Assembly (NCBI GenBank): GCA_018335975.1
Contig: JAGXRH010000001.1
Span: 6,215 to 30,214 of the forward strand
DNA from: Ignavibacteriales bacterium
GTDB taxonomy: Bacteria; Bacteroidota; Ignavibacteria; UBA10030; F1-140-MAGs086
Reading direction: 5' to 3'
Length of the DNA stretch: 24,000 nucleotides
Under the pieces are notes generated by a model. That model searched no databases, had not been told where the DNA came from, and saw only the letters and a program-made list of their open reading frames with translations. Both the position numbers and the translations under genes were made by a program. This document shows positions 3,152-19,778 of the stretch, piece by piece (the first letter of the stretch is position 1; each line of letters starts with the position of its first letter).

Positions 3152-4096
3152 ATGACTAAACATATTTTTCAACTTATAATAATTGCACTATTTTATTTTA
3201 CGCTGCAACAAACTGCAGGTGCAAGAGTATGGACAGTAAGCAACAACAGCGGAGACCATGCTAATTTTGCCACACTGCAATTAGCGCATGATGGAGCAAA
3301 TAGCGGAGATACACTTTATGTTTTTGGAAGCGAGACCGTGTATAATAGTCTTACCCTAACTAAAAAACTTACAATAATTGGTACCGGATATTTTCTTACG
3401 CAAAATCCAAATACACAAGCAAGAAAACTAAACGCTCAAGCAAGTGCCATGAACTTTAAATCTGGCTCAGAAGGTTCTGAAGTAATAGGTATGCATATAG
3501 GTTCAGGCAACCAAATTTTTATAAATGCTAATAACATTACGTTAAAAAGAAACTACATTTACGGACAATTTATCATCGGAAAGGATACATTAGTTACAAA
3601 TGTTTTTGTATTACAAAACTATATAGAGTATTGGTCTTCAGGAATCGAGATAAGAAATCTGTCGAGAAATATTTTTTTCTTCAATAACTATATAAGGGTA
3701 TCAATCTCTGGTTACAATGGTCGGGACGTTGGAGTCCAAAACAATATTGTCTTTAATGGAATTTTTATACACTCTGCTTTTGTTCATAATAACATTTTAA
3801 TTGATGGAGATGTATATGGTGAGAATAGTACAGTATCAAATAATTTATCTATTAGTAGCAGCGCCATAAACACAGTATTTGTTGATACGGGAAGTCCCGA
3901 TGGAAAATGGAAACTCAAACCCGGTTCTCCCGCAATCGGCGCGGGTGTTGGCGGAGTTGATTGCGGTATGTATGGAGGCGATAATCCGTATGTGCTTTCG
4001 GGTATTCCGGCAATCCCGTCTATTTATTTCTTTAATGCACCCATCGAGGGAGGAAATCTATTGCCGGTGCAAATAAAAATAAAATCGAATAAGTAG
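3152..4096 (+). CDS. Secreted right-handed parallel beta-helix repeat protein (pectate-lyase-fold-like), lacking a sorting domain
   Basis: N-terminal signal peptide (MTKHIFQLIIIALFYFTLQQTAGA). There are periodic N-N-[IYL] turns (NNITLKRNYIYG, QNYIEY, NNYIRV, QNNIVFNG, HNNILIDG, SNNLSI). A GGAG motif lies upstream of the ATG. Confidence 0.75.
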   Translation: MTKHIFQLIIIALFYFTLQQTAGARVWTVSNNSGDHANFATLQLAHDGANSGDTLYVFGSETVYNSLTLTKKLTIIGTGYFLTQNPNTQARKLNAQASAMNFKSGSEGSEVIGMHIGSGNQIFINANNITLKRNYIYGQFIIGKDTLVTNVFVLQNYIEYWSSGIEIRNLSRNIFFFNNYIRVSISGYNGRDVGVQNNIVFNGIFIHSAFVHNNILIDGDVYGENSTVSNNLSISSSAINTVFVDTGSPDGKWKLKPGSPAIGAGVGGVDCGMYGGDNPYVLSGIPAIPSIYFFNAPIEGGNLLPVQIKIKSNK

Positions 4097-4101
4097 AATA
4101 T

Positions 4102-4232
4102 ATGACTCCTACGGAGTTTGATGCGAGTAAGTTATCAAGCGGAATGTATTTCTATAACTTGTTGCGGGAAATCTTTCGTCAGGCTCAGGACAAGATTACG
4201 TTGCCACGAAGAAACTTTTGCTGATGAAATAA
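4102..4232 (+). pseudogene. Orphan, frameshifted remnant of a T9SS C-terminal sorting domain
   Basis: One frame reads TPTEFDASKLSSGMYFYNLL...; the last 27 nt read TKKLLLMK* in a different frame (stop 4230-4232). Compare the intact ends [15 protein letters not shown]...KKLVLMK (gene ending 2129) and NASNVSSGVYFYRL...KKLMVVK (gene 9119-11845). The N-terminal half of the domain (NYPNPFNP...) is missing. Confidence 0.7.
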
Positions 4233-4289
4233 AGAACAGATACGGGAGAATTTTCTTATTTTCGTCCTGTAATTTTTAGAAAAAACTTT

Positions 4290-4637
4290 ATGCAATCACC
4301 CATCAACACACAAGTAATAGATACCATTCTCGGAAAACCGGCGAAAAATGTCAACGTTGTTTTAGAAACACAAGCCGACAATAGCGAATGGAAAGAACTT
4401 GCGCGTTCTTCCACCAATACCGATGGAAAAATCGAGCAGTTGCTCCCGGAAAATTTTCCGTTGAAAGCGGGATTTTATTCGCTCATCTTCGACACGAAAT
4501 CGTACTATCAAGCAATGGGACTCGAAACATTTTATCCCGTCGTTCCCATCATCATCGAAATAAAAAACCAAACGGAGCAAACACACATCACGCTCTCGTT
4601 GAGTCCATACGGATATTCAACGCATAAAGGAAGGTAA
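4290..4637 (+). CDS. Transthyretin-like / 5-hydroxyisourate hydrolase family protein with atypical active-site positions
   Basis: 115 aa. GKPAxNVxVxL, TNxDGK and LSLSPYGYST align by eye to the HIUase pattern (HxLDxxxGKPA, TNxDGR, HYHxPLLLSPxGYxxYRGS). The C-terminus is HKGR instead of YRGS. Confidence 0.75.
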   Translation: MQSPINTQVIDTILGKPAKNVNVVLETQADNSEWKELARSSTNTDGKIEQLLPENFPLKAGFYSLIFDTKSYYQAMGLETFYPVVPIIIEIKNQTEQTHITLSLSPYGYSTHKGR

Positions 4638-4718
4638 AGAGTCTTCTTCACCGCAGATTAGAGGATGTGTTGGATTATGAATTTTAGAAGAGATATCTTA
4701 TGAGCATCTCTAAAAACT

Positions 4719-4926
4719 CTCTACGAGTCATAGACAAAAATGAATTTAAACGCAAAGGACACAAAGCAGGCACAAAGGTCGCAAAGTATTGAATGTATTC
4801 CCTTGGTGTTCTTTGTGAAAATACTTTGTGCTCTCTGTGTTTAAAAAATATAGTTTTTATTCCAAAGGAATCCCTTCGGGAGAGACGCCCTTATTATCCT
4901 TTTCATTCGCTCTACGAGTCATAGAC
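4719..4926. repeat. 17-bp direct repeats flanking a 174-bp segment that carries a CACAAAG/CTTTGTG imperfect palindrome (MITE-like)
   Basis: ctctacgagtcatagac occurs at 4719-4735 and again at 4910-4926. Between them are three cacaaag-type units (4758-4786) facing ctttgtg units (4811-4838). gcaaagtatt (4781-4790) pairs with aatactttg (4820-4828). Confidence 0.6.
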
Positions 4927-4940
4927 GGTGAATCAACGCT

Positions 4941-6071
4941 ATGAACATTTATTCCGAAATTCTCTCCGCGCTGGAAACCGAGGAACGCGTAATGCTCGCA
5001 ACGATTATTTCCACTTCAGGTTCAACGCCGGCATCCGCTTTTTCAAAAATGTTAGTGAAAGAAAATGGAATTATTTCTATGGGAACGATTGGCGGCGGAT
5101 GTATGGAGGGCGACGTTCTTCTCCATTCGCGGCGGCTTTTAGAAACGGGGAAAACGGAAATTCTCTCGTTTCATTTGAACGAAGACGACATCGAACACGG
5201 TTTAATTTGCGGCGGAAGTCTGGAGGTAATGATTGAACCGGTTACGCGCGGGCAGATTTCCCTTTTCAAAGAAATTCTCTCATCACAAAACGAGGGAAAT
5301 GATACCGTGCTTGCAACGTTGGTTTCTTCAGAAGGAAAAGTTGTTCTTAAAAAGATTTTACGCAAAGAAACCTGGAGTAATGGAGAACTGTCCGAAGGAC
5401 TCCTTTCGGAGGAGCAATGGAGTAAAGAGTTTGACTACTCCAACCCTCCAACCCTCCAACCCTCCGTTCTAAAAGCAGAAATAGAAAAAACCTTTTCAAG
5501 AAATGAGACGCGAAAAATAAAAACCCAAAACGGGACGTTGATTCTCGAACCGATTCAGGGAACACCCTCGCTGATAATTTTCGGCGGCGGACACGTTTCA
5601 AAATACATTTCTAAAATTGCCGCGATGTGCGGATTTCAAATTACGGTAATTGACGACAGGGAAAAATTTGCAAACAACCAACGATTTCCTGAAGCAAAGG
5701 AAACGTTCGCTCGTGATTTCAAGGATATATTTCAAACAATTATCGTAACGCAATCAACGTACATCGTTATCGTAACGCGCGGACATCAGTTTGACGAAGT
5801 GGTTTTGGAACAGGTAATAAAAACGAACGCAAAATACATTGGAATGATTGGCAGCAAACGGAAAGTGCTGGCGACGTACGAACATTTGCGGGCGAGAGGA
5901 ATTTCGAACGAACAATTGAAACACATTCACTCGCCGATGGGAATCGAGATTGGCGCAACGACGGCGGAAGAAATCGCGGTGAGCATTGTGGCGGAAATGA
6001 TTCGTGTGCGGCGTGGGGGAAAAGAGGTACTCTCGCATAAATCCGATTCACTGAAAGAATATCTGCAATGA
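4941..6071 (+). CDS. XdhC/CoxI family molybdenum-cofactor insertion accessory protein
   Basis: 376 aa. The N-terminal XdhC_CoxI-like region has GGGCMEG and LICGG motifs. The C-terminal Rossmann-like region reads LIIFGGGHVSKYISKIAAMCGFQITVIDDREKF...VTRGHQFD...YIGMIGSKRK. Confidence 0.85.
   Translation: MNIYSEILSALETEERVMLATIISTSGSTPASAFSKMLVKENGIISMGTIGGGCMEGDVLLHSRRLLETGKTEILSFHLNEDDIEHGLICGGSLEVMIEPVTRGQISLFKEILSSQNEGNDTVLATLVSSEGKVVLKKILRKETWSNGELSEGLLSEEQWSKEFDYSNPPTLQPSVLKAEIEKTFSRNETRKIKTQNGTLILEPIQGTPSLIIFGGGHVSKYISKIAAMCGFQITVIDDREKFANNQRFPEAKETFARDFKDIFQTIIVTQSTYIVIVTRGHQFDEVVLEQVIKTNAKYIGMIGSKRKVLATYEHLRARGISNEQLKHIHSPMGIEIGATTAEEIAVSIVAEMIRVRRGGKEVLSHKSDSLKEYLQ
5439..5465 (+). repeat. 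Octanucleotide tandem repeat (tccaaccc x3.4) inside the XdhC interdomain linker
   Basis: tccaaccc occurs at 5439-5446, 5447-5454 and 5455-5462, followed by tcc. The repeat encodes SNPPTLQPS. Confidence 0.9.
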
Positions 6072-6313
6072 ATATCAATATCAAATTTTTTGCGGCAGCA
6101 AAAGAGGTCGCAGGGAAAGAAGAAATGCAATTTTCGCTTCCTTCCTCTTCCACCGCATCATCGCTTTTGGATTTACTCGTTGAACAATTTCCCGGACTGC
6201 AGGAATGGAAACAGTACGTTCGTGTTGCAGTGAATCAGGAATACGTTTCGCTCGATTACGCGTTGAATGAAAATGACGAAGTTGCAATTATTCCGCCGGT
6301 AAGTGGAGGATGA
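6068..6313 (+). CDS. moaD: Molybdopterin synthase sulfur-carrier subunit MoaD
   Basis: 81 aa. The N-terminus is INIKFFAAAKEVAGK and the C-terminus is VAIIPPVSGG (diagnostic Gly-Gly). The start overlaps the XdhC stop in an ATGA overlap at 6068-6071. Confidence 0.9.
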   Translation: MNINIKFFAAAKEVAGKEEMQFSLPSSSTASSLLDLLVEQFPGLQEWKQYVRVAVNQEYVSLDYALNENDEVAIIPPVSGG

Positions 6314-6338
6314 GTTCATTTTATATTTTAGATTTGAG

Positions 6339-6764
6339 ATGATAGAAATAGTTTCTGAAAAAATTGACATAACAAAAATTCTGCAAAGCGTGGAAGATAA
6401 TTCTGCCGGAGGAATTGATATGTTCATCGGAACAACGCGCGATAATTCAAAAGGAAAAAGCGTGTTGCGTTTGGAGTATGAAGCGTACATTCCGATGGCA
6501 TTGAAAAAAATGAATGAAATTGCCGGTGAAGCAAAAACGCGATGGAACATCAAAAAAATTTCCCTTGTTCATCGGATTGGGAAAGTGGAAATCGGCGAAG
6601 CGAGTATTGTGATTGCCGTTTCTTCCCCTCATCGCAAAGAAGCGTTTGAAGCGTGTCGTTATGCAATTGACACGTTAAAAAAGATTGTACCGATTTGGAA
6701 GAAAGAATTTTTTGAGGATGGTGAGGTGTGGGTGGATGCGCGGGAGGAGAAGATACTTTCGTGA
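6339..6764 (+). CDS. moaE: Molybdopterin synthase catalytic subunit MoaE
   Basis: FIGTTRDNSKGKSVLRLEYEAYIPMA...ISLVHRIGKVEIGEASIVIAVSSPHRKEAFEACRYAIDTLKKIVPIWKKE is the MoaE core. I prefer the ATG at 6339 (MIEIVSEK...). The ORF track's alternative GTG at 6303 would overlap moaD and adds an unconserved-looking extension. Confidence 0.85.
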   Translation: MIEIVSEKIDITKILQSVEDNSAGGIDMFIGTTRDNSKGKSVLRLEYEAYIPMALKKMNEIAGEAKTRWNIKKISLVHRIGKVEIGEASIVIAVSSPHRKEAFEACRYAIDTLKKIVPIWKKEFFEDGEVWVDAREEKILS

Positions 6765-6872
6765 TAATTATTTTAAGAATCGGCGATACCTGATGTGAAT
6801 GATTGCAATATATTTTACCATAAAATTTTTAATTCACCCTATTGAAAAACAAATCAAATAATCTCTAAAACT

Positions 6873-7289
6873 ATGAAACGAACAATCAGCATACTTATAC
6901 TTATAACGGCATTTGCTTTCGTCTTGACAAATGCTCAGGATAAAATGGAAAAGAAAGACGAAATGATGAAAAAATCGGAAATGATGGAAAAGAAGATGAT
7001 GAAACGAAGCGATATGAAACATGATGAAATGGGAAAAATGAAATCATATATGTGCAGCGATGAAAAATGCGGGTTTATGGTGCAAAGTCCCGATGAAGAG
7101 GAAGTGATGTCCGCAACGAAAATGCACGGCAAAAAACATCACGATGTTGAAATGACAGACGAGATGGTAAAAGAAAAAATGGGCGGCGATATGATGAAAG
7201 GCGATGGAATGAAGAGAGGAAAAAGAATGCGCCGAGACGATATGATGAAAAAAGAGGAAATGATGAAGAAAGACGAAATGAAGAAATAA
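6873..7289 (+). CDS. Secreted methionine-rich protein with a central DUF1059-like small metal-binding (Cys/His) core
   Basis: Signal peptide MKRTISILILITAFAFVLTNAQ. By my count 26 of 116 mature residues are Met, set in MMKK/EMMEKK-type repeats on both sides of YMCSDEKCGFMVQSPDEEEVMSATKMHGKKHH (DUF1059-like C..CGF...EEE...H pattern). A strong terminator follows the gene. Confidence 0.8.
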   Translation: MKRTISILILITAFAFVLTNAQDKMEKKDEMMKKSEMMEKKMMKRSDMKHDEMGKMKSYMCSDEKCGFMVQSPDEEEVMSATKMHGKKHHDVEMTDEMVKEKMGGDMMKGDGMKRGKRMRRDDMMKKEEMMKKDEMKK

Positions 7290-7300
7290 TATATTTTTCA

Positions 7301-7338
7301 GAAAGCGATTCCCGGTTGAGGGAATCGCTTTCTTTTTT
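7301..7338 (+). terminator. Rho-independent terminator after the Met-rich gene
   Basis: Perfect 13-bp stem gaaagcgattccc (7301-7313) / gggaatcgctttc (7320-7332), a 6-nt loop, then tttttt (7333-7338). Confidence 0.85.
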
Positions 7339-7353
7339 CCGCTCCATTCTATT

Positions 7354-8067
7354 ATGAACGAACCAACGAAAACTATTTCTGTAAAGCGGAGAAAACTTCT
7401 CCAGCTTTCACCGCTTGTTTTATTCGCGGGCTGCGATTATTCTGCAAAAGGAAACGTAGATTCTTTCCTTACGTCCTTTCAAAAATTTACCGATTGGACG
7501 CAAGAAAAAATATTCGACCCGAATAAACTTGCGACGGAATATTCCGATGAAGAGGTAACGCCGATTGAGGGTTTTCGCGTGAATGGCTACGATACGGATG
7601 AACCGGATATTGATATGGAAAACTGGAGTCTGACCGTTGAGGGGCTTGTGAAAAATCCCGGCGAATATTCGCTTGAGCAAGTGCAATCGTTTCCTAAAAA
7701 AGTGATGAACACAAGACATTGTTGTGTCGAGGGTTGGAGTATGATTCCGAAATGGGGAGGAACAAGAGTAAGAGATTTTATGAAATCGGTTGGTGTTGAT
7801 GAAAAAGCAAAATATGTTGCCGTTGAGTGTGGCGATGATTATTTCACTTGTTTCTATATGCCAAGTTTTCTTCACGCACAAACATTACTTTGTTATGAAG
7901 CGTACAATAAGCCGCTTTCTCTTCAACATGGAGCGCCGGTGAGAATCGTGATGCCGACAAAACTCGGCTATAAATCTGCGAAGTGGTTAAATAAAATCAT
8001 TGTAACGAATGAAAAACCCGGCGGGTACTGGGAAGACCAGGGGTACGATTGGTTTGCAGGAATATAA
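7354..8067 (+). CDS. Periplasmic molybdopterin-dependent oxidoreductase of the sulfite-oxidase fold (MsrP/YedY-like), with a Tat-type signal and a possible lipobox
   Basis: VKRRKLLQLSPLVLFAGC is a twin-arginine-like leader ending in a Cys. HCCVEGWSMIPKWGG resembles the Mo-ligand Cys motif (CVEAWSM) that I recall for E. coli MsrP. GAPVRIVMPTKLGYKSAKWL matches the GAPxRLxxP.K.G.K motif. Confidence 0.8.
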   Translation: MNEPTKTISVKRRKLLQLSPLVLFAGCDYSAKGNVDSFLTSFQKFTDWTQEKIFDPNKLATEYSDEEVTPIEGFRVNGYDTDEPDIDMENWSLTVEGLVKNPGEYSLEQVQSFPKKVMNTRHCCVEGWSMIPKWGGTRVRDFMKSVGVDEKAKYVAVECGDDYFTCFYMPSFLHAQTLLCYEAYNKPLSLQHGAPVRIVMPTKLGYKSAKWLNKIIVTNEKPGGYWEDQGYDWFAGI

Positions 8068-8078
8068 AAGAGAATTTC

Positions 8079-8154
8079 AATGTAGAATGATGAAGTGAGG
8101 ATGTATGCGCTGGAAACTTGAACATTGGATATTGAACATTGAATATTCTACATT
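8079..8154. repeat. Inverted repeat enclosing a 14-nt-period direct repeat, upstream of the lipoprotein/cytochrome b genes
   Basis: aatgtagaat (8079-8088) is the exact reverse complement of attctacatt (8145-8154). ttgaacattg occurs at 8118-8127 and 8132-8141. The palindrome gaatattc lies at 8141-8148. Confidence 0.6.
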
Positions 8155-8181
8155 TGATACACTCTCAACACCAAGAGTTCA

Positions 8182-8391
8182 ATGAAATCAATTGTCATTT
8201 TTTTGTTAGCATTTTCTTTACTCTCCTGCGAAAAGAAAATCAACGTGGTTGCAATGAACGATAAGACAAAAATATTTCACAAACAAGATTGTCCGAAATT
8301 AATGATGGCGAATGTTCGGTTGATTACTGTTGAAGAAGCAAAACAGCGTGGAGGAAAACCGTGTCCGAATTGCAAACCCGAAACACGATGA
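8182..8391 (+). CDS. Small lipoprotein with an Ada-type (H/C-x3-C...C-x2-C) zinc-ribbon-like motif
   Basis: Lipobox LLSC (Cys16). His33-x3-Cys37-x23-Cys61-x2-Cys64 in IFHKQDCPKL...EEAKQRGGKPCPNCKP resembles the Ada N-terminal zinc site spacing (C38, C42, C69, C72 in E. coli Ada). Its stop overlaps the cytochrome b ATG. Confidence 0.7.
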   Translation: MKSIVIFLLAFSLLSCEKKINVVAMNDKTKIFHKQDCPKLMMANVRLITVEEAKQRGGKPCPNCKPETR

Positions 8392-9026
8392 ATAACACAG
8401 AAAAAGAATTTCACCATCCGCCCATCATTCGCATAACACATTGGCTCAATGCAATTGCGTTGCTGATAATGATAACGAGCGGGTTACGGATTTACAACGC
8501 TTCGCCGATTTTCGATTTCAGGATTCCATCGGTGTTTACCCTCGGCGGATGGCTTGCGGGAGCGCGTCAGTGGCATTTTTTCGGAATGTATTTGTTTACT
8601 GTTAATGGAATTATTTACCTTCTGTATAACCTGTTCACGAAACATGGACGGGAGACAACGCTCTTTCGAAAAAAAGATGCTGCCGGAATTATCCCAATGA
8701 TGAGATACTATGCGGGGTTGCAAAAAGAACATCCGCCGCAACGGAAATACAATGCCTTACAAAAATCTGCTTATACCGTAGTTCTCCTTCTTGGTTTTGG
8801 CGGAATACTTTCTGGGATTGCTATTTATTTGCCCGTGCAGTTATCATTTGTTACTGCATTGTTTGGAAATTATGATGCAGCGCGCGTGTGGCATTTTCTT
8901 TTTATGGGTGCGCTGGTGCTCTTTACAATCGGGCATTTGTTTATGGTTGTAATATCGGGATGGAGCAACTTCCTTTCGATGTTCACGGGGTGGGGGAGGA
9001 AATACTCTGAGCCACCTACTTTGTAA
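8388..9026 (+). CDS. Membrane di-heme cytochrome b (prokaryotic cytochrome b561 / Ni-hydrogenase cyt b-type family)
   Basis: Four predicted TM helices carry His residues in ITHWLNAIALL, QWHFFGMYLF, RVWHFLFMG and TIGHLFMV. I place the start at ATG 8388 (ATGA overlap with the upstream stop at 8389-8391) rather than the GTG at 8361. Confidence 0.8.
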   Translation: MNNTEKEFHHPPIIRITHWLNAIALLIMITSGLRIYNASPIFDFRIPSVFTLGGWLAGARQWHFFGMYLFTVNGIIYLLYNLFTKHGRETTLFRKKDAAGIIPMMRYYAGLQKEHPPQRKYNALQKSAYTVVLLLGFGGILSGIAIYLPVQLSFVTALFGNYDAARVWHFLFMGALVLFTIGHLFMVVISGWSNFLSMFTGWGRKYSEPPTL

Positions 9027-9033
9027 CGCGTAC

Positions 9034-9065
9034 AAAAACAACATTGAGTGATTTGCTCAATGTTG
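9034..9065 (-). terminator. Stem-loop between convergent genes; on the minus strand it acts as an intrinsic terminator for the 908-aa gene
   Basis: caacattgag (9039-9048) pairs with ctcaatgttg (9056-9065), with a 7-nt loop. On the minus strand it is followed by ttttt (complement of 9034-9038). On the plus strand it lies 13 nt after the cytochrome b stop but has no T-run. Confidence 0.65.
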
Positions 9066-9118
9066 CAAGCGTGTTGGCAAGGTCATTAACGAAATTAGGA
9101 ATGAAAATATACTGACCG

Positions 9119-11845
9119 TTACTTTACAACCATAAGTTTTTTTGATTGGATAAAAATTTGTTTCCCGTCACGCAAAACAAGTAAACGATAAAAATACACT
9201 CCGCTTGAAACATTCGAGGCATTCCAATCAACCACGTGATTTCCCAATTCTAATTTTTCATTGTTCAAAAGAGTTTTTACTTCTTGTCCCAAGATGTTGT
9301 AAATTTTGAGTGTAACAGTTGAATTGTGGGGAAGAAAAAACGAGACCGTTGTTTTTGGATTAAATGGATTGGGGTAGTTTTGAGAAAGAAGAAAGTTTGT
9401 GTTCTGTAATGGAACATCTTTTATGGCGGTTGTAGGAGACGAAAAATGTAAAAAAGGAACATCGCTTAATCCCTTACAACCCCAAATGCGAATCGGGCTT
9501 TTGGTTATTATATACGGAGAACCAAGAAATGCATTATTGATTTTCCGAGCAACAGAATCAAGCGCATTATAATCAAAACCAAAGTCAAAAAAAGAAAGCG
9601 CGGAATCTATCTTTGCGGAAATTTGATAAATCGTATAACCGTTGAATGGGTCAGAGGGATTAGCGTTATCAAAGTATTGTAGGTAACCGAAGCGCCGGGG
9701 CGTAATATTTAATTCGCTTGCAAAAATGTTCATCTTCAGGGCAATTTGTTCTCCTGCCAAATGATTTTTATGGCGTGAATAGTACGGGTTAATTCTCTCG
9801 CCGGTTGTGCTATCTGCCCACCACGTAGAATCGTAATTAAGAAAAGGTTTGGCTGCGGCGGAACTGTCCAAGTAAGTTCCATTGATAATTGAATTTTGAG
9901 TAGGAAGGAAGCGGAGCAATCGGTTATACCATGAAATTCGAGCAAAACCATAAAAAGGTGGAAATGGTGATGGCGGCACTATATCGGATTTTACACCGAG
10001 GATAAGGTCGTTTGTTGTAGATAAATCTTTTTGCCGCAAAACTGAATCTCGAACATTTGCCCAAGACCATCGTCCTGTCGAGTCGGGATTACGTTTTAGT
10101 ACTGCCAGTACGAGAGTTTCCTGAGGAACGGTACAAAAACTCGGCTGAACAAGGGAATAAAAATTATTTGCATAAGAAATTCCTTTTCCTTGTTCAGGGT
10201 CTATCGTTATTTGTATTGTTCTTGTGCCAAGCACTTGCTGTGAACTTCCGCCGAAACCAGCAACAGCAGAATACCAATATGGTTTTCCGGAATCACAAAC
10301 GATTGTAAATGTTTGAGCAGCCACGCCAAGATTGCGAAAACTGTAAAATCCCAAATCGTTAGTAAGTGTAGATTCTACGAGGGCATCTCCTACAAAGCGA
10401 AATAATCTCCAATCCCCCTTTCCTTCTCTGTCGTGCGACGTTGCAGTATCGCCATCAAAATCTTCAAGCACTTGTCCGGTAATTGCGCTCGTCGTCGTAA
10501 AATATTTTGCCGTAAGTCCGTTTGTGCCGTTCGTTCCTGTTATATACACAGAGTTTGCCGCATCGAGAGTTATTGCGGTAAGGAAATCATTGTTGCTATT
10601 TCCATCGAGTTGTATATCCCATATTTTCGTACCGTCGAGATGATTCAATTTTGCAGCATAGAAATTTTTCAAACCTGTTGCAGTATCAGTAGAAATATAT
10701 CCACCGACGTACACTGCAGAATCGCTTCCGATTGAAACAGCAATTCCTCTATCAATCGAACTTGTACCAGCCAAAGGTCCGTTTATTTGTTTTGTCCAAA
10801 TTGTGTCTCCGGTGCTGCCACGATACTTTATTGTAAAAATATTTTCGCGTTCAATACCATGGTAATTCGTTCCTGTTATATACACATTATCCTCATTGTC
10901 TATTGCTATATCTGTAGGAATTTCATTCAAACCAACTAAAAAATTGTACCGTTTATTCCATAACACCTCGCCGTTGAGTGAATATTTTATCGTACGAAAA
11001 TCGGCATCGGAATTTCTCGAAACACCTGTAACAATAACATTATAGCTATCATCTACAACTAAGTCCACAACCTGGTCAATCTGAATATACAGTGGGACGG
11101 TATAACGACGTGTCCAAACCGTATCTGCTGAATTTCCGCTATGCGATAGTAGGACAGTAAAAAAATCAAAACTGGAGCCCGGTCCTGCACTGTAACCTCC
11201 AACATAAATTCTCCCCGCGGAAGCAACTCCAATACAAGTTCCTACGTCACTTCCTGTACCGCCATCTACAGTTTTTATCCATTGCGCAGTTGTCAAATTC
11301 GTACCGCTCGTTGCAGAATCGTACTTGATTACTACGAGGTCGGAAATTCCAGAAATAATTTCAACAGAACCGGTTACAAACACATTTCGATTTTTGTCAA
11401 GTACAAGAGCAAGCGCTTCATCAAATCCGGTTTGCCTATAACTGTAATTTCGATCCCAAAGAATGCTGCCACTCGCTCCATTAATTTTCGCTGTATAAAT
11501 GTTTGCGTGTCTTGATAAACCGGAGAAATACATTCTACCACACGCATAGAGATTTCCTTCATCGTCAATTTTCATATCAGCGAGCGAATCATTTCCATCA
11601 TTGTAAAAATTGTTTCTCCACAAAAGCATTCCATCTGCATTGTATTTGAGAATTACCCAATCGTGGTTAGAGGGGAGGGATTCGTTCATAACTCCGCCAA
11701 CAATCACATTCCCAGAACCGTCAACGAGAATTGCAACGGGAGAAAAAGCTTGTTCACTATCAGCCCATGCTTGTGTTACTTGCGCAGCTACCTCCGAAAG
11801 GCGAACACCCAAGAGAAGAAAGAAAAATACAATAAAGTTTTTCAT
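9119..11845 (-). CDS. Large secreted protein: SBBP-type beta-propeller repeats, an uncharacterised C-terminal half and a T9SS sorting domain
   Basis: Signal peptide MKNFIVFFFLLLGVRLSEVAAQ. Repeats are of the form GNV[YFI]VTG...D[FL]xTIKYxxxGxxLW. The C-terminus is LSQNYPNPFNPKTTVSFFLP...GVYFYRLL...KKLMVVK. AGGAG lies 8 nt upstream of the ATG. Confidence 0.9.
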   Translation of the reverse strand: MKNFIVFFFLLLGVRLSEVAAQVTQAWADSEQAFSPVAILVDGSGNVIVGGVMNESLPSNHDWVILKYNADGMLLWRNNFYNDGNDSLADMKIDDEGNLYACGRMYFSGLSRHANIYTAKINGASGSILWDRNYSYRQTGFDEALALVLDKNRNVFVTGSVEIISGISDLVVIKYDSATSGTNLTTAQWIKTVDGGTGSDVGTCIGVASAGRIYVGGYSAGPGSSFDFFTVLLSHSGNSADTVWTRRYTVPLYIQIDQVVDLVVDDSYNVIVTGVSRNSDADFRTIKYSLNGEVLWNKRYNFLVGLNEIPTDIAIDNEDNVYITGTNYHGIERENIFTIKYRGSTGDTIWTKQINGPLAGTSSIDRGIAVSIGSDSAVYVGGYISTDTATGLKNFYAAKLNHLDGTKIWDIQLDGNSNNDFLTAITLDAANSVYITGTNGTNGLTAKYFTTTSAITGQVLEDFDGDTATSHDREGKGDWRLFRFVGDALVESTLTNDLGFYSFRNLGVAAQTFTIVCDSGKPYWYSAVAGFGGSSQQVLGTRTIQITIDPEQGKGISYANNFYSLVQPSFCTVPQETLVLAVLKRNPDSTGRWSWANVRDSVLRQKDLSTTNDLILGVKSDIVPPSPFPPFYGFARISWYNRLLRFLPTQNSIINGTYLDSSAAAKPFLNYDSTWWADSTTGERINPYYSRHKNHLAGEQIALKMNIFASELNITPRRFGYLQYFDNANPSDPFNGYTIYQISAKIDSALSFFDFGFDYNALDSVARKINNAFLGSPYIITKSPIRIWGCKGLSDVPFLHFSSPTTAIKDVPLQNTNFLLSQNYPNPFNPKTTVSFFLPHNSTVTLKIYNILGQEVKTLLNNEKLELGNHVVDWNASNVSSGVYFYRLLVLRDGKQIFIQSKKLMVVK

Positions 11846-14870: not shown

Positions 14871-16592
14871 ATGAATGTAACCATTACATTAGACGGTCAG
14901 CAACTCGAAACTGATTCGTCGAAAACTATTATTCAAGCGGCAAGAGATAACGGAATTGCGATTCCGAATTTTTGCTGGCATCCGGCATTATCCATTGCGG
15001 GAAATTGTCGCATTTGTCTTGTGGATTCCGGAATGCCGAAGAAAACGCGCGAAGGACAAATCGAACGCGATGCAAGCGGAAATGCAATAATAATGTACGC
15101 GCCGAAATTACAAATCGCTTGCCAAACAACAGTTGCGGATGGAATGGTAGTGCAATCGAAATCGCCGAAGGTCATTAACGCGCGCGAAGCCGTGATGGAA
15201 TTTCTGCTCATCAATCATCCGCTCGATTGTCCGATTTGCGACGAAGCCGGCGAATGTAAATTGCAAGAATACGCATACAAACACAGCGTCGGTTACAGCA
15301 GATTTGAATTTGAAAAAGTTCGCAAACCAAAACGCGTTGATATCGGAACAAACGTTATGCTCGATACAGAGCGTTGCATTATGTGTTCGCGCTGCGTTCG
15401 TTTCTGCGATGAAATTGTGAAAGAGACATCGCTCACGTTCTCCAATCGCGGCGACCATGTTGAACTTACAACATTTCCCGGAACTTCGCTCGACAATGAT
15501 TACTCGATGAACACGATTGATTTGTGTCCCGTTGGCGCGCTCACGAGTAAAGATTTTCGTTTCAAAGCGCGTGTGTGGGAAATGTCGTCAACGGATTCTG
15601 TTTGTGTTGGATGTTCGCGCGGATGCAACACAACAATCGGCGTTCGCAACAATGAAGTTTTGCGATTAACGCCGCGTTTCAACGACGATGTTAATAATTA
15701 TTGGATGTGCGATAACGGAAGATTGAACACGTTTAAAAGTGTGAACGCAGAAACCCGTATCAAAGCGCCGATGATTCGCAAAGAAGGAAAACTTGTTGAA
15801 GTCGGTTGGGATGAAGCGTTTGCAAAAGTTGCATCGGAACTTCGCCGGTTTCAGAAAAATGAAATTGCAGTTCTCGGTTCCGCGTTTGCAACAAACGAAG
15901 ATAATTTTCTTTTACAAAAATTTGCAAAACAAGTTCTCGGAACAAAGAATCTTGATTTCTTTCAACACATAAAAGATGGCGATGAAGACGAACTTCTCAT
16001 TCGCGCAGATAAAACGCCGAATAGTTTCGGAACAAAAGAAATGGGCGTTGGAAATGGAAATGCAGAAAATATTTTAAACGGAACAATTAAAGTTTTGTAT
16101 TTGCTTGAAGATAACATTGCGGAAAATTCTGATGTTGCAAACCTTCTTTCAAAATTAGATTTCCTCGTTGTTCATTCATCGAATCACAATGAAACGACGA
16201 AACTTGCCGATGTTGTGTTTTCTGCTTCAACATACGCGGAAAAAAACGGAACGTTCACAAACTTTCAAGGAAATGTGCAGCGCATTCGTCCCGCAGTTGC
16301 AACGCTGGAACAAGACCGCGCGCTCGATGGATTTGCGATGAGTCGTTTGGATAAATTCGGTTCGCAATTTGATAGATGGATGAAAGGTGAAAAACGCGAC
16401 GCTCGTTCTTCGTGGAAAATTATTTCGGGAGTTGCCAACGCAATGAACGCAAAATGGAAATACAATTCCGCCGAAGATGTGTTCAAAGAAATTGCGAATA
16501 CGGTTTCAAGTTTTCAAGGAATGAGTTATTTTAAGATGAGAAATAAGGGAATGAAGTTGAATAGTAATTCGGTGGTTGAAAAAGGGGTGTAA
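14871..16592 (+). CDS. nuoG: NADH-quinone oxidoreductase subunit G (short form)
   Basis: The N-terminal 2Fe-2S region reads ITLDGQQLE...IPNFCWHPALSIAGNCRICLV. HPLDCPICDEAGECKLQ is the N5 HxxxCxxCxxxxxC motif. CIMCSRCVRFC and CPVGALT are the 4Fe-4S motifs. A molybdopterin-like domain follows. Confidence 0.9.
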   Translation: MNVTITLDGQQLETDSSKTIIQAARDNGIAIPNFCWHPALSIAGNCRICLVDSGMPKKTREGQIERDASGNAIIMYAPKLQIACQTTVADGMVVQSKSPKVINAREAVMEFLLINHPLDCPICDEAGECKLQEYAYKHSVGYSRFEFEKVRKPKRVDIGTNVMLDTERCIMCSRCVRFCDEIVKETSLTFSNRGDHVELTTFPGTSLDNDYSMNTIDLCPVGALTSKDFRFKARVWEMSSTDSVCVGCSRGCNTTIGVRNNEVLRLTPRFNDDVNNYWMCDNGRLNTFKSVNAETRIKAPMIRKEGKLVEVGWDEAFAKVASELRRFQKNEIAVLGSAFATNEDNFLLQKFAKQVLGTKNLDFFQHIKDGDEDELLIRADKTPNSFGTKEMGVGNGNAENILNGTIKVLYLLEDNIAENSDVANLLSKLDFLVVHSSNHNETTKLADVVFSASTYAEKNGTFTNFQGNVQRIRPAVATLEQDRALDGFAMSRLDKFGSQFDRWMKGEKRDARSSWKIISGVANAMNAKWKYNSAEDVFKEIANTVSSFQGMSYFKMRNKGMKLNSNSVVEKGV

Positions 16593-16598
16593 GTTTTT

Positions 16599-16859
16599 AT
16601 GCCAGAAATAAGTAGATTTTTCGGAATCATAATTACGATGAAGGCAAACGACCACAATCCTCCGCATTTACACGCAAAGTATCAAGATGAGCAAGCAATT
16701 TTTGATATTCAAAGTGGCGAAATTCTGCGGGGAAAATTTTCTGAGCGAGCAGCTCGATTAGTTCAAGATTGGATTCAATTACATTCTGTTGAGTTAATGG
16801 TTGATTGGAATTTGGCATCAAAAAATCAACTTATTTTTCCAATAACACCTTTAAAATAA
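16599..16859 (+). CDS. DUF4160 domain protein (second copy)
   Basis: ISRFFGIIITMKANDHNPPHLHAKYQDEQAIFDI..GEILRGKF.....LVQDWIQLHSVELMVDW. By eye it is roughly 40-45% identical to the copy at 13818. Confidence 0.8.
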   Translation: MPEISRFFGIIITMKANDHNPPHLHAKYQDEQAIFDIQSGEILRGKFSERAARLVQDWIQLHSVELMVDWNLASKNQLIFPITPLK

Positions 16860-16861
16860 AT

Positions 16862-17176
16862 ATGATTATGGACGAATGGATTACAATTACTTCCGTAGAA
16901 AATAAAAGCAATTACATTTTACGGTTAACATTCAGCGACGATTGCGTAAAAGAAATTGATATGTCGGATTTGAAATATCTTTCCGGTGATTTTTCTGTTC
17001 TCAACAACGAAGAAGATTTTCGGAAAATAAAAATTGTTGACGATGGCAGAGCGTTGCAATGGGAATGTGGTTACGATAATTGCGCGGATGAACTTCGTTA
17101 CTTTCGTGATTACATTTTTGCAGAAGGTTTAGAAAATTCTTCGTTTGAATTAGAAAAAGAAAATGTTATCGCTTAA
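16862..17176 (+). CDS. DUF2442 domain protein (second copy)
   Basis: ITSVENKSNYILRLTFSDDCVKEIDMS....GDFSVLNNEEDFRKIKIVDDGRALQWECGYDNCADELRY. I place the start at ATG 16862, 2 nt after the upstream stop, not at 16805. Confidence 0.75.
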   Translation: MIMDEWITITSVENKSNYILRLTFSDDCVKEIDMSDLKYLSGDFSVLNNEEDFRKIKIVDDGRALQWECGYDNCADELRYFRDYIFAEGLENSSFELEKENVIA

Positions 17177-17184
17177 CTTTTCAG

Positions 17185-17241
17185 CCACGAATTTCACGAA
17201 TTTTCACTAATGTGGTTTGTGCTAATTCGTGAAATTAGTGG
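17185..17241. repeat. 18-bp-stem hairpin (1 mismatch) built from CACGAATTT repeats, just upstream of nuoH
   Basis: ccacgaatttcacgaatt (17185-17202) pairs with the reverse complement of aattcgtgaaattagtgg (17224-17241) at 17 of 18 positions, with a 21-nt loop. It is followed by an A-rich rather than a T-rich tract. Confidence 0.7.
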
Positions 17242-17259
17242 CAACAAAAAATAAAAATT

Positions 17260-18294
17260 ATGTTTGAACTTTTCATCATCAGCACCATCAAAATCGTCGT
17301 AATGTTAATCGTATTATTAACCACTGCGGCGTATATGGTTTTAGCGGAACGACGAATCAGCGCGGCTGTGCAAGATAGAATCGGTCCCAATCGCGTTGGA
17401 TGGCAAGGGTTTTTGCAGCCGCTCGCCGATTTAGTAAAACTTGTTACGAAAGAAGACATTGTTCCGAAAGCGGCGAACAGATTTATTCACGACCTCGCGC
17501 CGATTATTTCCGTGTTCATTGCGCTTACAACATTTGCTGTTGTTCCGTTCGGAAATACGATTGAACTTTTCGGAAGAACAATCAAATTGCAAATCGCCGA
17601 CGTGAACATAGGCATTCTCTACATTCTTGCGCTCGCTTCGGTTGGCGTGTACGGAATTACGCTCGCCGGTTGGTCATCGAACAATAAATATTCGCTGCTC
17701 GGCGGAATGCGTTCATCTGCGCAAATGATTTCCTACGAACTTTCGATGGGACTTTCGATCATCGGCGTGGTGATGATTTCTTCTTCGCTGCAACTCGATA
17801 AAATTGTCGAAGCGCAAACCGGTTACGTTCTCGGTTTTCTTCCGAAATGGAATATCGTTTTACAACCGATTGGTTTCATTACGTTTCTTGTTTCGTCTTT
17901 TGCGGAAACAAATCGCACGCCATTTGATTTGCCCGAAGCGGAACCGGAACTCGTCGGCGGTTATCACACGGAATATTCGGGATTGAAATTCGGTTTATTT
18001 TTTCTCGCGGAGTATTGTAATATGGTTGTCGCAAGCGCAGTGATTACAACGCTGTATCTCGGCGGTTGGCAATTTCCGTACGTTGAATCATTTGGATTTT
18101 CTCCGTTCGTTGTAAGTTTATTGCAAGTCGGAGCGTTTGCGATAAAAGTTGGAGCGCTTTTATTTTTCTTCATTCTCGTTCGCTGGACTGTTCCGCGTTT
18201 TCGTTACGACCAACTGATGAATCTCGGATGGAAAGTTATGCTCCCGCTTGCGTTGGCAAATATTGTGGTTACGGGAATATTTTTGTTGATGTGA
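17260..18294 (+). CDS. nuoH: NADH-quinone oxidoreductase subunit H
   Basis: 344 aa and polytopic. Motifs: AERRISAAVQDRIGPNRVG, GWSSNNKYSLLGGMRSSAQMISYE, ETNRTPFDLPEAEPELVGGYHTEYSG and RWTVPRFRYDQLM. Confidence 0.95.
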   Translation: MFELFIISTIKIVVMLIVLLTTAAYMVLAERRISAAVQDRIGPNRVGWQGFLQPLADLVKLVTKEDIVPKAANRFIHDLAPIISVFIALTTFAVVPFGNTIELFGRTIKLQIADVNIGILYILALASVGVYGITLAGWSSNNKYSLLGGMRSSAQMISYELSMGLSIIGVVMISSSLQLDKIVEAQTGYVLGFLPKWNIVLQPIGFITFLVSSFAETNRTPFDLPEAEPELVGGYHTEYSGLKFGLFFLAEYCNMVVASAVITTLYLGGWQFPYVESFGFSPFVVSLLQVGAFAIKVGALLFFFILVRWTVPRFRYDQLMNLGWKVMLPLALANIVVTGIFLLM

Positions 18295-18303
18295 GGGAAG
18301 AAA

Positions 18304-18331
18304 TTTTAGATTTTAGAATTCAGATTTTAGA
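18304..18331. repeat. Short TTTTAGA repeat tract in the nuoH-downstream gap
   Basis: ttttaga occurs at 18304-18310, 18311-18317 and 18325-18331. A similar attttagatttgag lies in the moaD-moaE junction (6325-6338). Confidence 0.5.
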
Positions 18332-18391
18332 TTGAACGTTTCGCAAAGAGAATAAACTCGAACCTTGTAACTCTAAACCTCAAACTTTTTT

Positions 18392-18619
18392 ATGAACACA
18401 CAACCAATTTCTTTTTCAGATATTTTGCAATTAAGCGTTTCCGAACGCATTCAACTTGTCGAAGATATTTGGGATAGTCTTCGAGAAGTTCCGGATGAAT
18501 TTGGATTAAGTGATGCTCAGCGAAAAGAACTTGCGCGAAGAGCGGAAGAATTTTATAAAAATCCCAACGAAGGAATTCCTTGGAAAACGTTGAAAGCCAA
18601 TCTTCTCAATAGCAAGTGA
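18392..18619 (+). CDS. Addiction-module antitoxin (putative addiction module component family)
   Basis: LQLSVSERIQLVEDIWDSL....LSDAQRKELARR is the characteristic LSxxERxxLxxxxWDSL motif. Its stop overlaps the toxin start (GTGA at 18616-18619). Confidence 0.8.
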   Translation: MNTQPISFSDILQLSVSERIQLVEDIWDSLREVPDEFGLSDAQRKELARRAEEFYKNPNEGIPWKTLKANLLNSK

Positions 18620-18912
18620 AGTTAGAGAGTTTAATACGCTCTGATGCACAACGAGAAATTACAGAAACATTTCAGTGGTATGAAAATCAGAGTAACGGTC
18701 TCGGTACAGAATTCCTCCGTGCTGTTGATGCTGCAATTGCTTCGATTGAACGATTTCCTAAAGCATTTCCAAAAGTTGAAGGTGAAACAAGAAAAATTTT
18801 GTTACGAAGATTTCCTTACGCTATTTTTTATATTGTTCACCTGGATATAATTGCAATAACCGGATGTTATCATCAAAAACGCCATCCGGAAATTTGGCGA
18901 AACAAATCGTAG
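18616..18912 (+). CDS. Type II toxin-antitoxin system toxin, RelE/ParE family
   Basis: AQREITETFQWYENQSNGLGTEFLRAVDAAIASIERFP.....V.G..RKILLRRFPYAIFY......I.I.GCYHQKRHPEIW is the ParE-like pattern. Confidence 0.8.
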   Translation: MKLESLIRSDAQREITETFQWYENQSNGLGTEFLRAVDAAIASIERFPKAFPKVEGETRKILLRRFPYAIFYIVHLDIIAITGCYHQKRHPEIWRNKS

Positions 18913-18936
18913 CGACAAATAACGAATAACTCTTTT

Positions 18937-19452
18937 ATGAAAGACAACGGACAAACAACAAAACAAGTTCGCAACGAAAACCTATCGTTTTTGCAGCGAA
19001 CATATATTCCCGAAATTGCAAAGGGATTAGTTCTCACGTTTGGAAAAATGTTTGGGAAAAAATTCACTCGGCAATATCCCGAAGAACGATGGACTCCTCC
19101 GGCATCATTTCGCGGAAGACCGGTTCTCGTGCAAGAAGAAAACGGAACAGAACGCTGCGTTGCGTGTGGATTGTGCGCGCGCGTTTGTCCCGCATTAGCA
19201 ATTGAAATGCAAGCGAGCGAAACACCGCTCTACGATAAAGAACGTTATCCCGTAAAATTTGAAATCAATATGCTTCGCTGCATCTTCTGTGGATTTTGCG
19301 AAGAAGCGTGTCCCGAAGAAGCAATCGTTATGAGTGATGAGTACGAACTTGTGTTCGATAAAATGGAAGATGCAGTTTTCGGAAAAGATAAACTCCTCAT
19401 CCCGAAAAAGAAATTACAAAAGCGTTTGGATTTTTTGCGCGAATATAAATGA
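18937..19452 (+). CDS. nuoI: NADH-quinone oxidoreductase subunit I
   Basis: Two ferredoxin-type motifs: [12 protein letters not shown] and [12 protein letters not shown]. An N-terminal amphipathic region is typical of NuoI. Confidence 0.95.
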
Positions 19453-19778
19453 AACTCCCGATTGATGTAACAATTTCAAAAGAGAAACTTACCAATTATC
19501 TTTTGGAATTGAGAATCGAAGATGACAAATCAAAATTTCTTTTACAAGCGGGATATGAAATAGAACTTTGGAAACAATTAGAAGAAGATTTGCGAACGCA
19601 AATATTGACACAAGAAGCAACATTGATTGAACAAACTACTTTCGGAGATGTGTATGAAATACTTGGAACTCTGCAAGGACTGAATGGACGAAAACTCAAC
19701 GTTGTAACTATTTGGATGACAGAATACAAAACTCAGAAAACAAAATTTATCACACTCTTTCCCGATAAGGAAAAATGA
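19449..19778 (+). CDS. DUF6883-like protein (cassette partner 1)
   Basis: KLTNYLLE.....[11 protein letters not shown]...W..LE..L..........[27 protein letters not shown]. Its ATG overlaps the nuoI stop (ATGA at 19449-19452). Confidence 0.65.

Follow-up and report, generated by a model that had tools for sequence, protein, structure and literature searches.

The closest described relatives of the system reported here are MrpX, BcrX and C3568, all members of the TIGR02953 'pentapeptide MXKDX repeat protein' family. MrpX of Azospira suillum PS, where it is accompanied by YedY1/YedZ1, carries a signal peptide and consists of 20% methionine (Met) and 44% charged residues (Melnyk et al. 2015, PMC4436054). 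Chlorite or hypochlorite raises its expression 20-60-fold; in vivo it is oxidised and later returns to the reduced form, and the purified protein is preferentially oxidised by hypochlorite (PMC4436054). Its authors proposed that it is natively unfolded and acts as a sacrificial sink which YedY regenerates, the reductase proposed being YedY1 (PMC4436054). Hypochlorous acid induces the bcrXQP operon of Brucella melitensis, whose first gene encodes BcrX, an MXKDX repeat protein (PMC8315932). In uropathogenic Escherichia coli (UPEC), c3566 and c3567 protect from oxidants, and c3568 encodes a Met-rich peptide homologous to MrpX (PMC8550376). The present analysis concerns a stretch of 24,000 nucleotides from Ignavibacteriales bacterium (contig JAGXRH010000001.1, positions 6,215 to 30,214; referred to below as the window), and within it a plus-strand gene at 6873-7289 whose small secreted product has two Met-rich arms around a DUF1059 core. 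Homology, recurrent synteny and composition point, with a probability of roughly 0.6, to a MrpX-like periplasmic sacrificial methionine sink or dedicated substrate.

The layout of this functional class, i.e., a secreted Met-rich protein with a YedY-like molybdenum (Mo) enzyme and a membrane haem b protein, is present in the window. The order on the plus strand is XdhC, MoaD, MoaE, Met-rich gene, hairpin, Mo enzyme, lipoprotein and cytochrome b561. The features are as follows.

4941-6071, plus strand: XdhC, molybdenum cofactor (Moco) synthesis or insertion (Pfam and NCBIfam)
6068-6313, plus strand: MoaD, Moco synthesis or insertion (Pfam and NCBIfam)
6303-6764, plus strand: MoaE, Moco synthesis or insertion (Pfam and NCBIfam)
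6873-7289, plus strand: Met-rich gene, open reading frame (ORF) from ATG to TAA, 138 residues, translation as quoted in the original prediction
6873..6938, plus strand: Sec-type signal peptide, residues 1-22, MKRTISILILITAFAFVLTNA followed by QD, predicted cleavage after TNA, read from the sequence
6939..7037, plus strand: N-terminal Met/Lys/Glu-rich arm, residues 23-55, ~27% Met, MXKDX-like periodicity of 5-6 residues, predicted local distance difference test score (pLDDT) <50
7038..7181, plus strand: DUF1059 core, residues 56-103, C61/C66 on a predicted β-hairpin and H85/H90 on predicted helices, 7 Met
7182..7289, plus strand: C-terminal Met/Lys/Glu/Asp-rich arm, residues 104-138, and stop codon, 26% Met, 60% charged, MMKK[DE]E hexads, pLDDT 42-58
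7300..7339, plus strand: terminator-like hairpin between the Met-rich and Mo-enzyme genes, 14-bp stem and 6-nt loop at 7300-7333, T-run
7354..8067, plus strand: lipoprotein Mo enzyme with a twin-arginine translocation (Tat) signal, putative periplasmic methionine sulfoxide reductase, 237 residues, Oxidored_molyb 124.7 bits
8182..8391, plus strand: lipoprotein of 69 residues, lipobox LLSC, C-x22-CPxC, weak Ada_Zn_binding match only
8361..9026, plus strand: cytochrome b561 (PF01292), putative quinol-linked electron donor, Ni_hydr_CYTB 101.8 bits, gene-caller start at 8388

The context of the gene is the decisive evidence for a MrpX-like sink. The enzyme family repeatedly adjoins secreted Met-rich proteins. 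The Mo enzyme of the window is 39% identical over its full length to the C3567-type enzyme of UPEC (E = 1e-62). The cytochrome is 42% identical to the C3566-type protein (E = 2e-36), and both are PF01292 proteins. The relationship was reached through a human-gut contig recovered with the Mo enzyme (L096), which led to plasmid and chromosomal clusters of E. coli. The chromosomal cluster encodes a sensor kinase, a response regulator, a cytochrome b, a Mo oxidoreductase, a Met-rich protein of 80 residues and hlyCABD, and is the c3564-c3568 locus studied in UPEC (PMC8550376). Since the neighbouring Mo enzyme and cytochrome are homologous to C3567 and C3566, and the third gene of that system encodes a Met-rich peptide, redox buffering by Met oxidation, one of two functions suggested by the original prediction, is strongly supported. 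As a separate observation, the plasmid-type cluster of cytochrome b, Mo enzyme and Met-rich gene (e.g., NZ_AP022328.1 2709-4518) was present in 73 of 5426 complete E. coli genomes. It shares ~73% DNA identity with the chromosomal UPEC cluster, and the annotation of its Met-rich gene reads just 'hypothetical protein'.

A metagenome scan with the Mo-enzyme alignment yielded 80 loci, 60 of which were distant loci with sufficient sequence downstream to be assessed for linkage to a secreted ORF with at least 10% Met starting no more than 900 nt downstream of the Mo gene. In this distant clade the Mo enzymes are 37-44% identical to that of the window, and the cytochrome b561 gene precedes the Mo-enzyme gene. 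A Met-rich secreted ORF of the defined kind was found downstream in 32 of the 60 loci; elsewhere in the loci only four occurred in 242 kb. Five of the downstream proteins were compared with TIGR02953 (cut-off 41). Four scored 72-102 bits and the one from the E. coli plasmid 38.8.

Loci of the close clade (58-83% identity, Ignavibacteria/Bacteroidota type) carry the Mo enzyme first, then the CxxC lipoprotein and cytochrome b561, and their slot upstream of the Mo gene is variable. Locus L113, with a Mo enzyme 83% identical to that of the window, has MoaD, MoaE, a secreted K/E/M-rich protein of 111 residues without DUF1059, the same terminator stem and the Mo gene. The DNA stretch aaaatggaaaagaaagacgaaatga is common to the N-terminal arm of the window gene and that of the L113 slot protein. 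L034 has MoeA, MoaD, MoaE, a Met-rich repeat protein without DUF1059 and the Mo gene, and L036 and L037 encode similar K/E/M-rich proteins upstream of it. The DUF1059 form occurs in L006. No slot gene separates MoaE from the Mo gene in L114, L115 and the P0013 contig, and unrelated genes lie upstream of the Mo gene in L032, L038-L041, L043 and L044. The sink gene is thus an accessory that the conserved reductase module may carry, lack or exchange, and the DUF1059-cored protein is one of the forms it takes. Directly upstream of the DUF1059 gene in L006 (2-538, plus strand) lies a gene for a secreted SnoaL-domain protein (Pfam 122 bits) with Met-rich N- and C-terminal arms, a second case of a folded domain within Met-rich tails.

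The mature Met-rich protein (116 residues) contains 26 Met, 26 Lys, 15 Glu, 13 Asp and 5 Arg, and is 22% Met and, from these counts of charged residues, 51% charged. The observation in the original prediction holds, and its Met count was exact; there are six MM dipeptides. The background, taken from 14 other long ORFs in the window, is 1.8% Met, and under a binomial model 26 or more Met among 116 residues would arise with a probability of ~6e-21. Lag analysis of Met-Met spacing gave maxima at lags 1, 5 and 6 in both arms. The signal peptide has a KR n-region, a hydrophobic core of 14 residues and a small-x-small cleavage site. It is common to all secreted homologues, in line with the earlier claim of secretion. 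The orthologue from L006 (P0003, 67% identical) has 74 identical codons, 22 synonymous-only and 35 non-synonymous differences relative to the window ORF, and three indels of 9, 1 and 6 codons, every one in-frame. In the core the protein is nearly invariant and third codon positions differ, a pattern which indicates that the DUF1059 core is under purifying selection. The frame kept in L006, the synonymous differences and the in-frame indels show by comparison that ORF 6873-7289 is a real coding gene, not low-complexity DNA.

To the original prediction the centre of the protein looked like DUF1059, and the hidden Markov model (HMM) search bore this out. Residues 56-101 matched Pfam DUF1059 (PF06348) with 28.3 bits (E = 2.1e-6; gathering cut-off 21.1), and the homologues P0005, P0144, P0153 and L010 likewise scored above the gathering cut-off. 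C61, C66, H85 and H90 are invariant in two homologue alignments and are presumed to form a metal site. The core motif among the relatives is C-x3-4-CGF-x-V-x-S-x-DE-x-E...K-x-H-x-K-x2-H. The same source had called for a prediction of order and disorder, and the result separates core and arms as it had anticipated. With the family alignment, AlphaFold2 gave pLDDT 84-90 for the core and mostly <50 for the arms, which are probably disordered; for the core alone it gave pLDDT 91 and a ββαα topology. The model places the two invariant Cys in the β-hairpin loop and the two invariant His where the first helix ends. Searched by sequence against the PDB, the whole protein gave only a spurious match to Zuotin (E = 0.11), and the core profile had no match there. 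Foldseek searches of the PDB with the full-length and core-only models found nothing better than E = 1.5 and a TM-score of 0.45. Since neither the sequence profile nor Foldseek finds a solved relative, the core is a confidently predicted small fold without detectable structural precedent. An assignment as a zinc finger was considered, and found no support in the Foldseek search. The preferred guess is that the core most likely serves as a stable scaffold for MXKDX-like arms, possibly with bound metal (Zn).

A search of 5.8 billion proteins recovered seven relatives besides the protein itself. Two are 67-68% identical and have the same architecture. The other five (37-54% identity) belong to other lineages, and one carries the label Candidatus Methylomirabilis. 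Each of the seven has the signal peptide, a Lys/Glu/Met-rich arm and the core, and a second arm is usual. The wider family was surveyed by a scan of one genome per species and by phmmer, with the core as query, run exhaustively on 1.84 billion representatives. The DUF1059 subfamily has two forms: a bare, apparently cytoplasmic protein of ~54 residues, and a secreted protein with charged arms. Metagenome-assembled genomes (MAGs) with the bare form bear labels that include Nitrospirota, Thermodesulfobacteriota, 'Deltaproteobacteria' and archaea. The secreted form is represented by ~30 distinct sequences from Ignavibacteria, Chlorobi and Bacteroidota MAGs. Literal MXKDX repeats form the arms of several secreted proteins; P0153 has DAMKKDAMKKDAMMKE, and the C-terminal end of P0144 is MKKDEMKKDEMKKD. 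The original prediction had proposed to compare the conservation of Met density with that of sequence. The core motif is conserved, and the Met content of the arms ranges from 3% to 31% across the secreted forms. The top of this range is occupied by the window protein (28% in the arms), its two close relatives, P0005, P0142 and P0144. Inside the core this Met-richest group mostly has 7-8 Met; most other relatives have 2-5.

The surroundings of the more distant secreted DUF1059 genes vary, and a neighbour shared among them was sought and not found. In L001 and L002 the gene lies among an MBL-fold (metallo-β-lactamase) gene, MarR, glyoxalase and YceI, in L003 near a LytTR two-component system, and in L008 after a resistance-nodulation-division (RND) pump. 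Tandem DUF1059-like proteins with 2-6 units ('EYTCPEPGCDF...IEHAHMHQELEHG') were also seen in P0129, P0130, P0136, P0138 and P0157; one has 2769 residues. A MAG of Thermodesulfovibrionales, the source of L026, carries a bare DUF1059 gene and encodes a secreted protein of 210 residues (7415-8047, plus strand), 23% Met and Gln/Gly-rich, beside small SHOCT-like and HMA-like (heavy-metal-associated) ORFs. This is probably a copper-type Met-rich protein, and its composition is unlike that of the K/E/D/M arms.

The Mo enzyme of the window has a twin-arginine motif and a lipobox; across 22 homologues neither the RR nor the lipobox Cys varies. Its top PDB match is E. coli YedY/MsrP (1XDQ), whose Mo-ligand motif RMRCVEAWSM pairs in the alignment with HCCVEGWSM of the window enzyme. 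Judged by sequence, it is related to MsrP and yet belongs to a distinct subfamily (YedY/MsrP-like, C3567-type). The 69-residue lipoprotein gene between the Mo-enzyme and cytochrome genes is conserved in L032, L033, L034, L037, L038 and L041 (tblastn, ORFs). This position is kept in loci of the Ignavibacteria/Chlorobi/Bacteroidota (FCB) group with Mo enzymes 58-83% identical, and is absent from the proteobacterial loci of cytochrome b, Mo enzyme and MXKDX protein. The lipoprotein, with its CxxC motif, could be a third subunit or a redox partner not yet characterised. The hairpin 3' of the Met-rich gene has a folding energy of -24.6 kcal/mol (z = -5.05); its stem is conserved in L006 and L113, and its loop differs. 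The order XdhC, (MoeA), MoaD, MoaE and Mo enzyme is also found in L034, L113, L114, L115 and the P0013 contig. An Rfam scan of 4000-9400 found neither a Moco riboswitch nor any other element. No convincing promoter was found upstream of the Met-rich gene, where the best candidate was a sigma-70-like match of 9/12 at 6833-6862. Several further observations concern the neighbourhood. XdhC scored 334.7, just under the cut-off of 350 for 'XdhC family aldehyde oxidoreductase maturation factor'. Directly before it lies a hydroxyisourate hydrolase (HIUase) gene in the window (region 4290-6764, plus strand) and a urate-oxidase gene in the P0013 contig. Farther downstream (14871-19778, plus strand), NuoG-, NuoH- and NuoI-like genes are interleaved with small pairs of toxin-antitoxin or phage type (DUF4160/DUF2442 twice, PBECR2/DUF2283, and DUF6883), an unusually interrupted cluster.

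From this arrangement we infer how the Met-rich protein may be oxidised and reduced, which path the electrons may take and what the terminator may do; a function for the core is likewise conjecture. The protein would be exported by the Sec pathway. It would expose ~26 thioethers, mainly on its two highly charged and probably disordered arms and less so on the Met-enriched core, and these would react fast with oxidants of the hypochlorite or peroxide type to give methionine sulfoxide. The Tat-exported lipoprotein Mo enzyme (7354-8067) could then return the sulfoxides to Met, with electrons passing from the quinol pool through cytochrome b561 (8361-9026) to the Mo enzyme. The strong hairpin after the Met-rich gene might let the sink exceed the enzyme in amount.

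Several points weigh against a MrpX-like sink. The window protein is not a member of TIGR02953, its only NCBIfam match, which scored 13.3 bits (E = 0.06; cut-off 41); the signal peptide and the 5-6 residue Met period typical of that family are present, and the folded DUF1059 core interrupts the repeats. The best NCBIfam match of the Mo enzyme is MsrP (NF003767), with 101.8 bits below the equivalog cut-off of 207, and its partner is a PF01292 cytochrome b561 rather than an MsrQ-type protein. No oxidant-responsive regulator was found near the Met-rich gene. The sink is dispensable, since some ten close relatives of the operon lack a Met-rich gene altogether. The more distant secreted DUF1059 homologues, among them the Met-rich P0005 (23% Met), have no adjoining Mo enzyme, so that the armed architecture also occurs apart from the Mo operon. 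Finally, a pure sink does not account for the purifying selection that preserves the Cys2His2 core.

Three other explanations of the gene were considered. That it is no gene, merely AT-rich, ATG/AAA-rich low-complexity DNA that happens to stay open, could draw on the extreme skew of its codons (ATG, AAA and GAA make up 43%) and on several antisense ORFs that overlap 6873-7289. The original prediction had itself left room for such DNA and for the lack of a related frame. This explanation is hardly credible given a DUF1059 score above the Pfam cut-off, homologues in several phyla that conserve the frame, the synonymous-biased substitutions and in-frame indels relative to L006, the conserved signal peptide and downstream terminator, and the confident AlphaFold2 core. 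Both the non-coding and the antisense-ORF readings were ruled out by the comparative data, in which the L006 orthologue retains the frame. A second possibility is a periplasmic Cu(I)/Ag(I) buffer or metallochaperone, in which the arm thioethers and the His and Cys of the core capture metal in the manner of PcoE/SilE or CusF. It would suit the high Met content with 4 His and 2 Cys, the invariance of the Cys2His2 set and the label 'predicted small metal-binding protein' that JGI gives to a homologue. In E. coli, MsrP is known to repair the Met-rich copper chaperone CusF (PMC9302797), which makes a Met-rich metal protein beside a methionine sulfoxide reductase conceivable. This function is nevertheless quite improbable: there are no cop, cus, HMA, pco, sil or multicopper-oxidase genes within the 24-kb window, Pfam and NCBIfam scans of the protein returned no metal-binding family, and its Met occur in K/E/D-rich MMKK[DE]E motifs like MXKDX, not in a Q/G/H-rich setting as in the copper-context protein of L026. 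The slot proteins of sister genomes, with their K/E/M repeats, also lack the Cys/His core. Soft-metal capture, the other function that the original prediction had suggested, is thus left without contextual support.

It is also unlikely, though it deserves weight, that the DUF1059 core is the functional part, with the arms as generic hydrophilic spacers and the Met content secondary. The core could then be a small periplasmic factor that is redox-active or depends on metal, such as a Zn/Cys switch sensitive to oxidants, a carrier of electrons or a factor in Mo-enzyme assembly. Such a role would account for the purifying selection, as the core differences from L006 are nearly all synonymous, and for the ~30 secreted charged-arm DUF1059 proteins that occur, with 3-31% Met in the arms, in the FCB group regardless of their neighbours, including the Met-rich P0005 and others unlinked to the reductase. 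Bare cytoplasmic forms exist too, and in L017 one is followed, 200 nt downstream, by a Mo enzyme of the sulfite-oxidase type. The slot proteins of L113 and L034, however, are wholly without the core. Met content peaks in the reductase-adjacent lineage, though the unlinked P0005 is equally rich, and the enrichment reaches the core itself, with 7 Met against 2-5 in most relatives. The Mo enzymes near bare DUF1059 genes (L017 and L026) were judged coincidental neighbours; they have 387-398 residues, are of another, sulfite-oxidase-type subfamily and stand in unrelated contexts. A reading that joins sink and core was also considered. The MXKDX-like arms would be a transferable antioxidant module that Ignavibacteria-type bacteria attach to various small folded periplasmic domains beside a C3567-type reductase (DUF1059 here, SnoaL in L006), and the Cys2His2 core would be no passive scaffold but an oxidant-labile metal site, whose oxidation would unfold the core and expose its 7 buried Met, making it sensor and sink at once. 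This is offered tentatively and is unlikely; if it were true, both architecture and mechanism would be such as have not been described for MrpX-type peptides. Among these explanations the MrpX-like methionine sink, or dedicated substrate, is preferred.

The original prediction did not recognise the architecture as a described one. In the searchable literature, where two papers mention DUF1059 and neither treats this subject, no description of a DUF1059 core with Met-rich arms was found, and to that extent the claim stands; it does not extend to the functional class, which is already known from MrpX (PMC4436054), BcrX (PMC8315932) and C3568 (PMC8550376). Four features are new: Met arms that enclose a DUF1059 core, a host that is Ignavibacteria-like, an additional CxxC lipoprotein, and a system coupled directly to Moco genes. 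In the literature found, Mo-reductase-coupled methionine sinks are confined to Proteobacteria (Azospira, Brucella, UPEC) and are unstructured MXKDX peptides. The locus suggests that the same logic operates in Ignavibacteria-like FCB bacteria, with a swappable sink slot that may be empty, repeat-only or bearing a folded domain. It also suggests that DUF1059 can be embedded in a sink, which would be a first testable functional context for this domain. A folded core with Met arms is a natural design for the study of Met oxidation and MsrP-type repair in ordered versus disordered segments.

Compared with the Met-rich copper and silver proteins PcoE/SilE, CusF and CopM, the window protein is likewise secreted, Met-rich and equipped with some His. 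It has no sequence or HMM similarity to them, and its arms are lysine- and acid-rich repeats, not MxxM/H-rich. With the DUF1059 (PF06348) family it shares the HMM match and the C-x3-4-CGF...H-x4-H pattern common to the bare forms of ~54 residues, whereas most members are bare cytoplasmic or tandem proteins and the window form is secreted, with Met/Lys/Glu arms and extra Met in the core. As in E. coli MsrPQ (YedYZ), the Mo enzyme combines the Oxidored_molyb fold with a Tat signal and a CVE[AG]WSM motif that holds the Mo-ligand Cys, and the electron donor is a membrane haem b protein. The enzyme of the window differs as a lipoprotein of 237 residues, and its partner is the PF01292 cytochrome b561, not MsrQ. 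To our knowledge, MsrPQ has no dedicated Met-rich partner.

The comparison with MrpX, BcrX and C3568 is the closest. In all of them the protein is small, Sec-secreted, ~20% Met and 45-50% charged, with a Met period of 5-6 residues, and its gene adjoins those of a YedY-like Mo enzyme exported by Tat and of a b-type cytochrome in the membrane. Like bcrX, the Met-rich gene of the window precedes the others. Unlike MrpX, the window protein carries a folded Cys2His2 DUF1059 core of 48 residues between its arms. Its repeats use MM dipeptides, its host is Ignavibacteria-like and not proteobacterial, its operon has the extra CxxC lipoprotein, a hairpin separates the Met-rich gene from the enzyme genes, and neither a SigF/NrsF-type nor a two-component regulator adjoins it. 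With these differences the locus is placed in the functional class of MrpX, BcrX and C3568, and extends an existing principle rather than introducing a new one.

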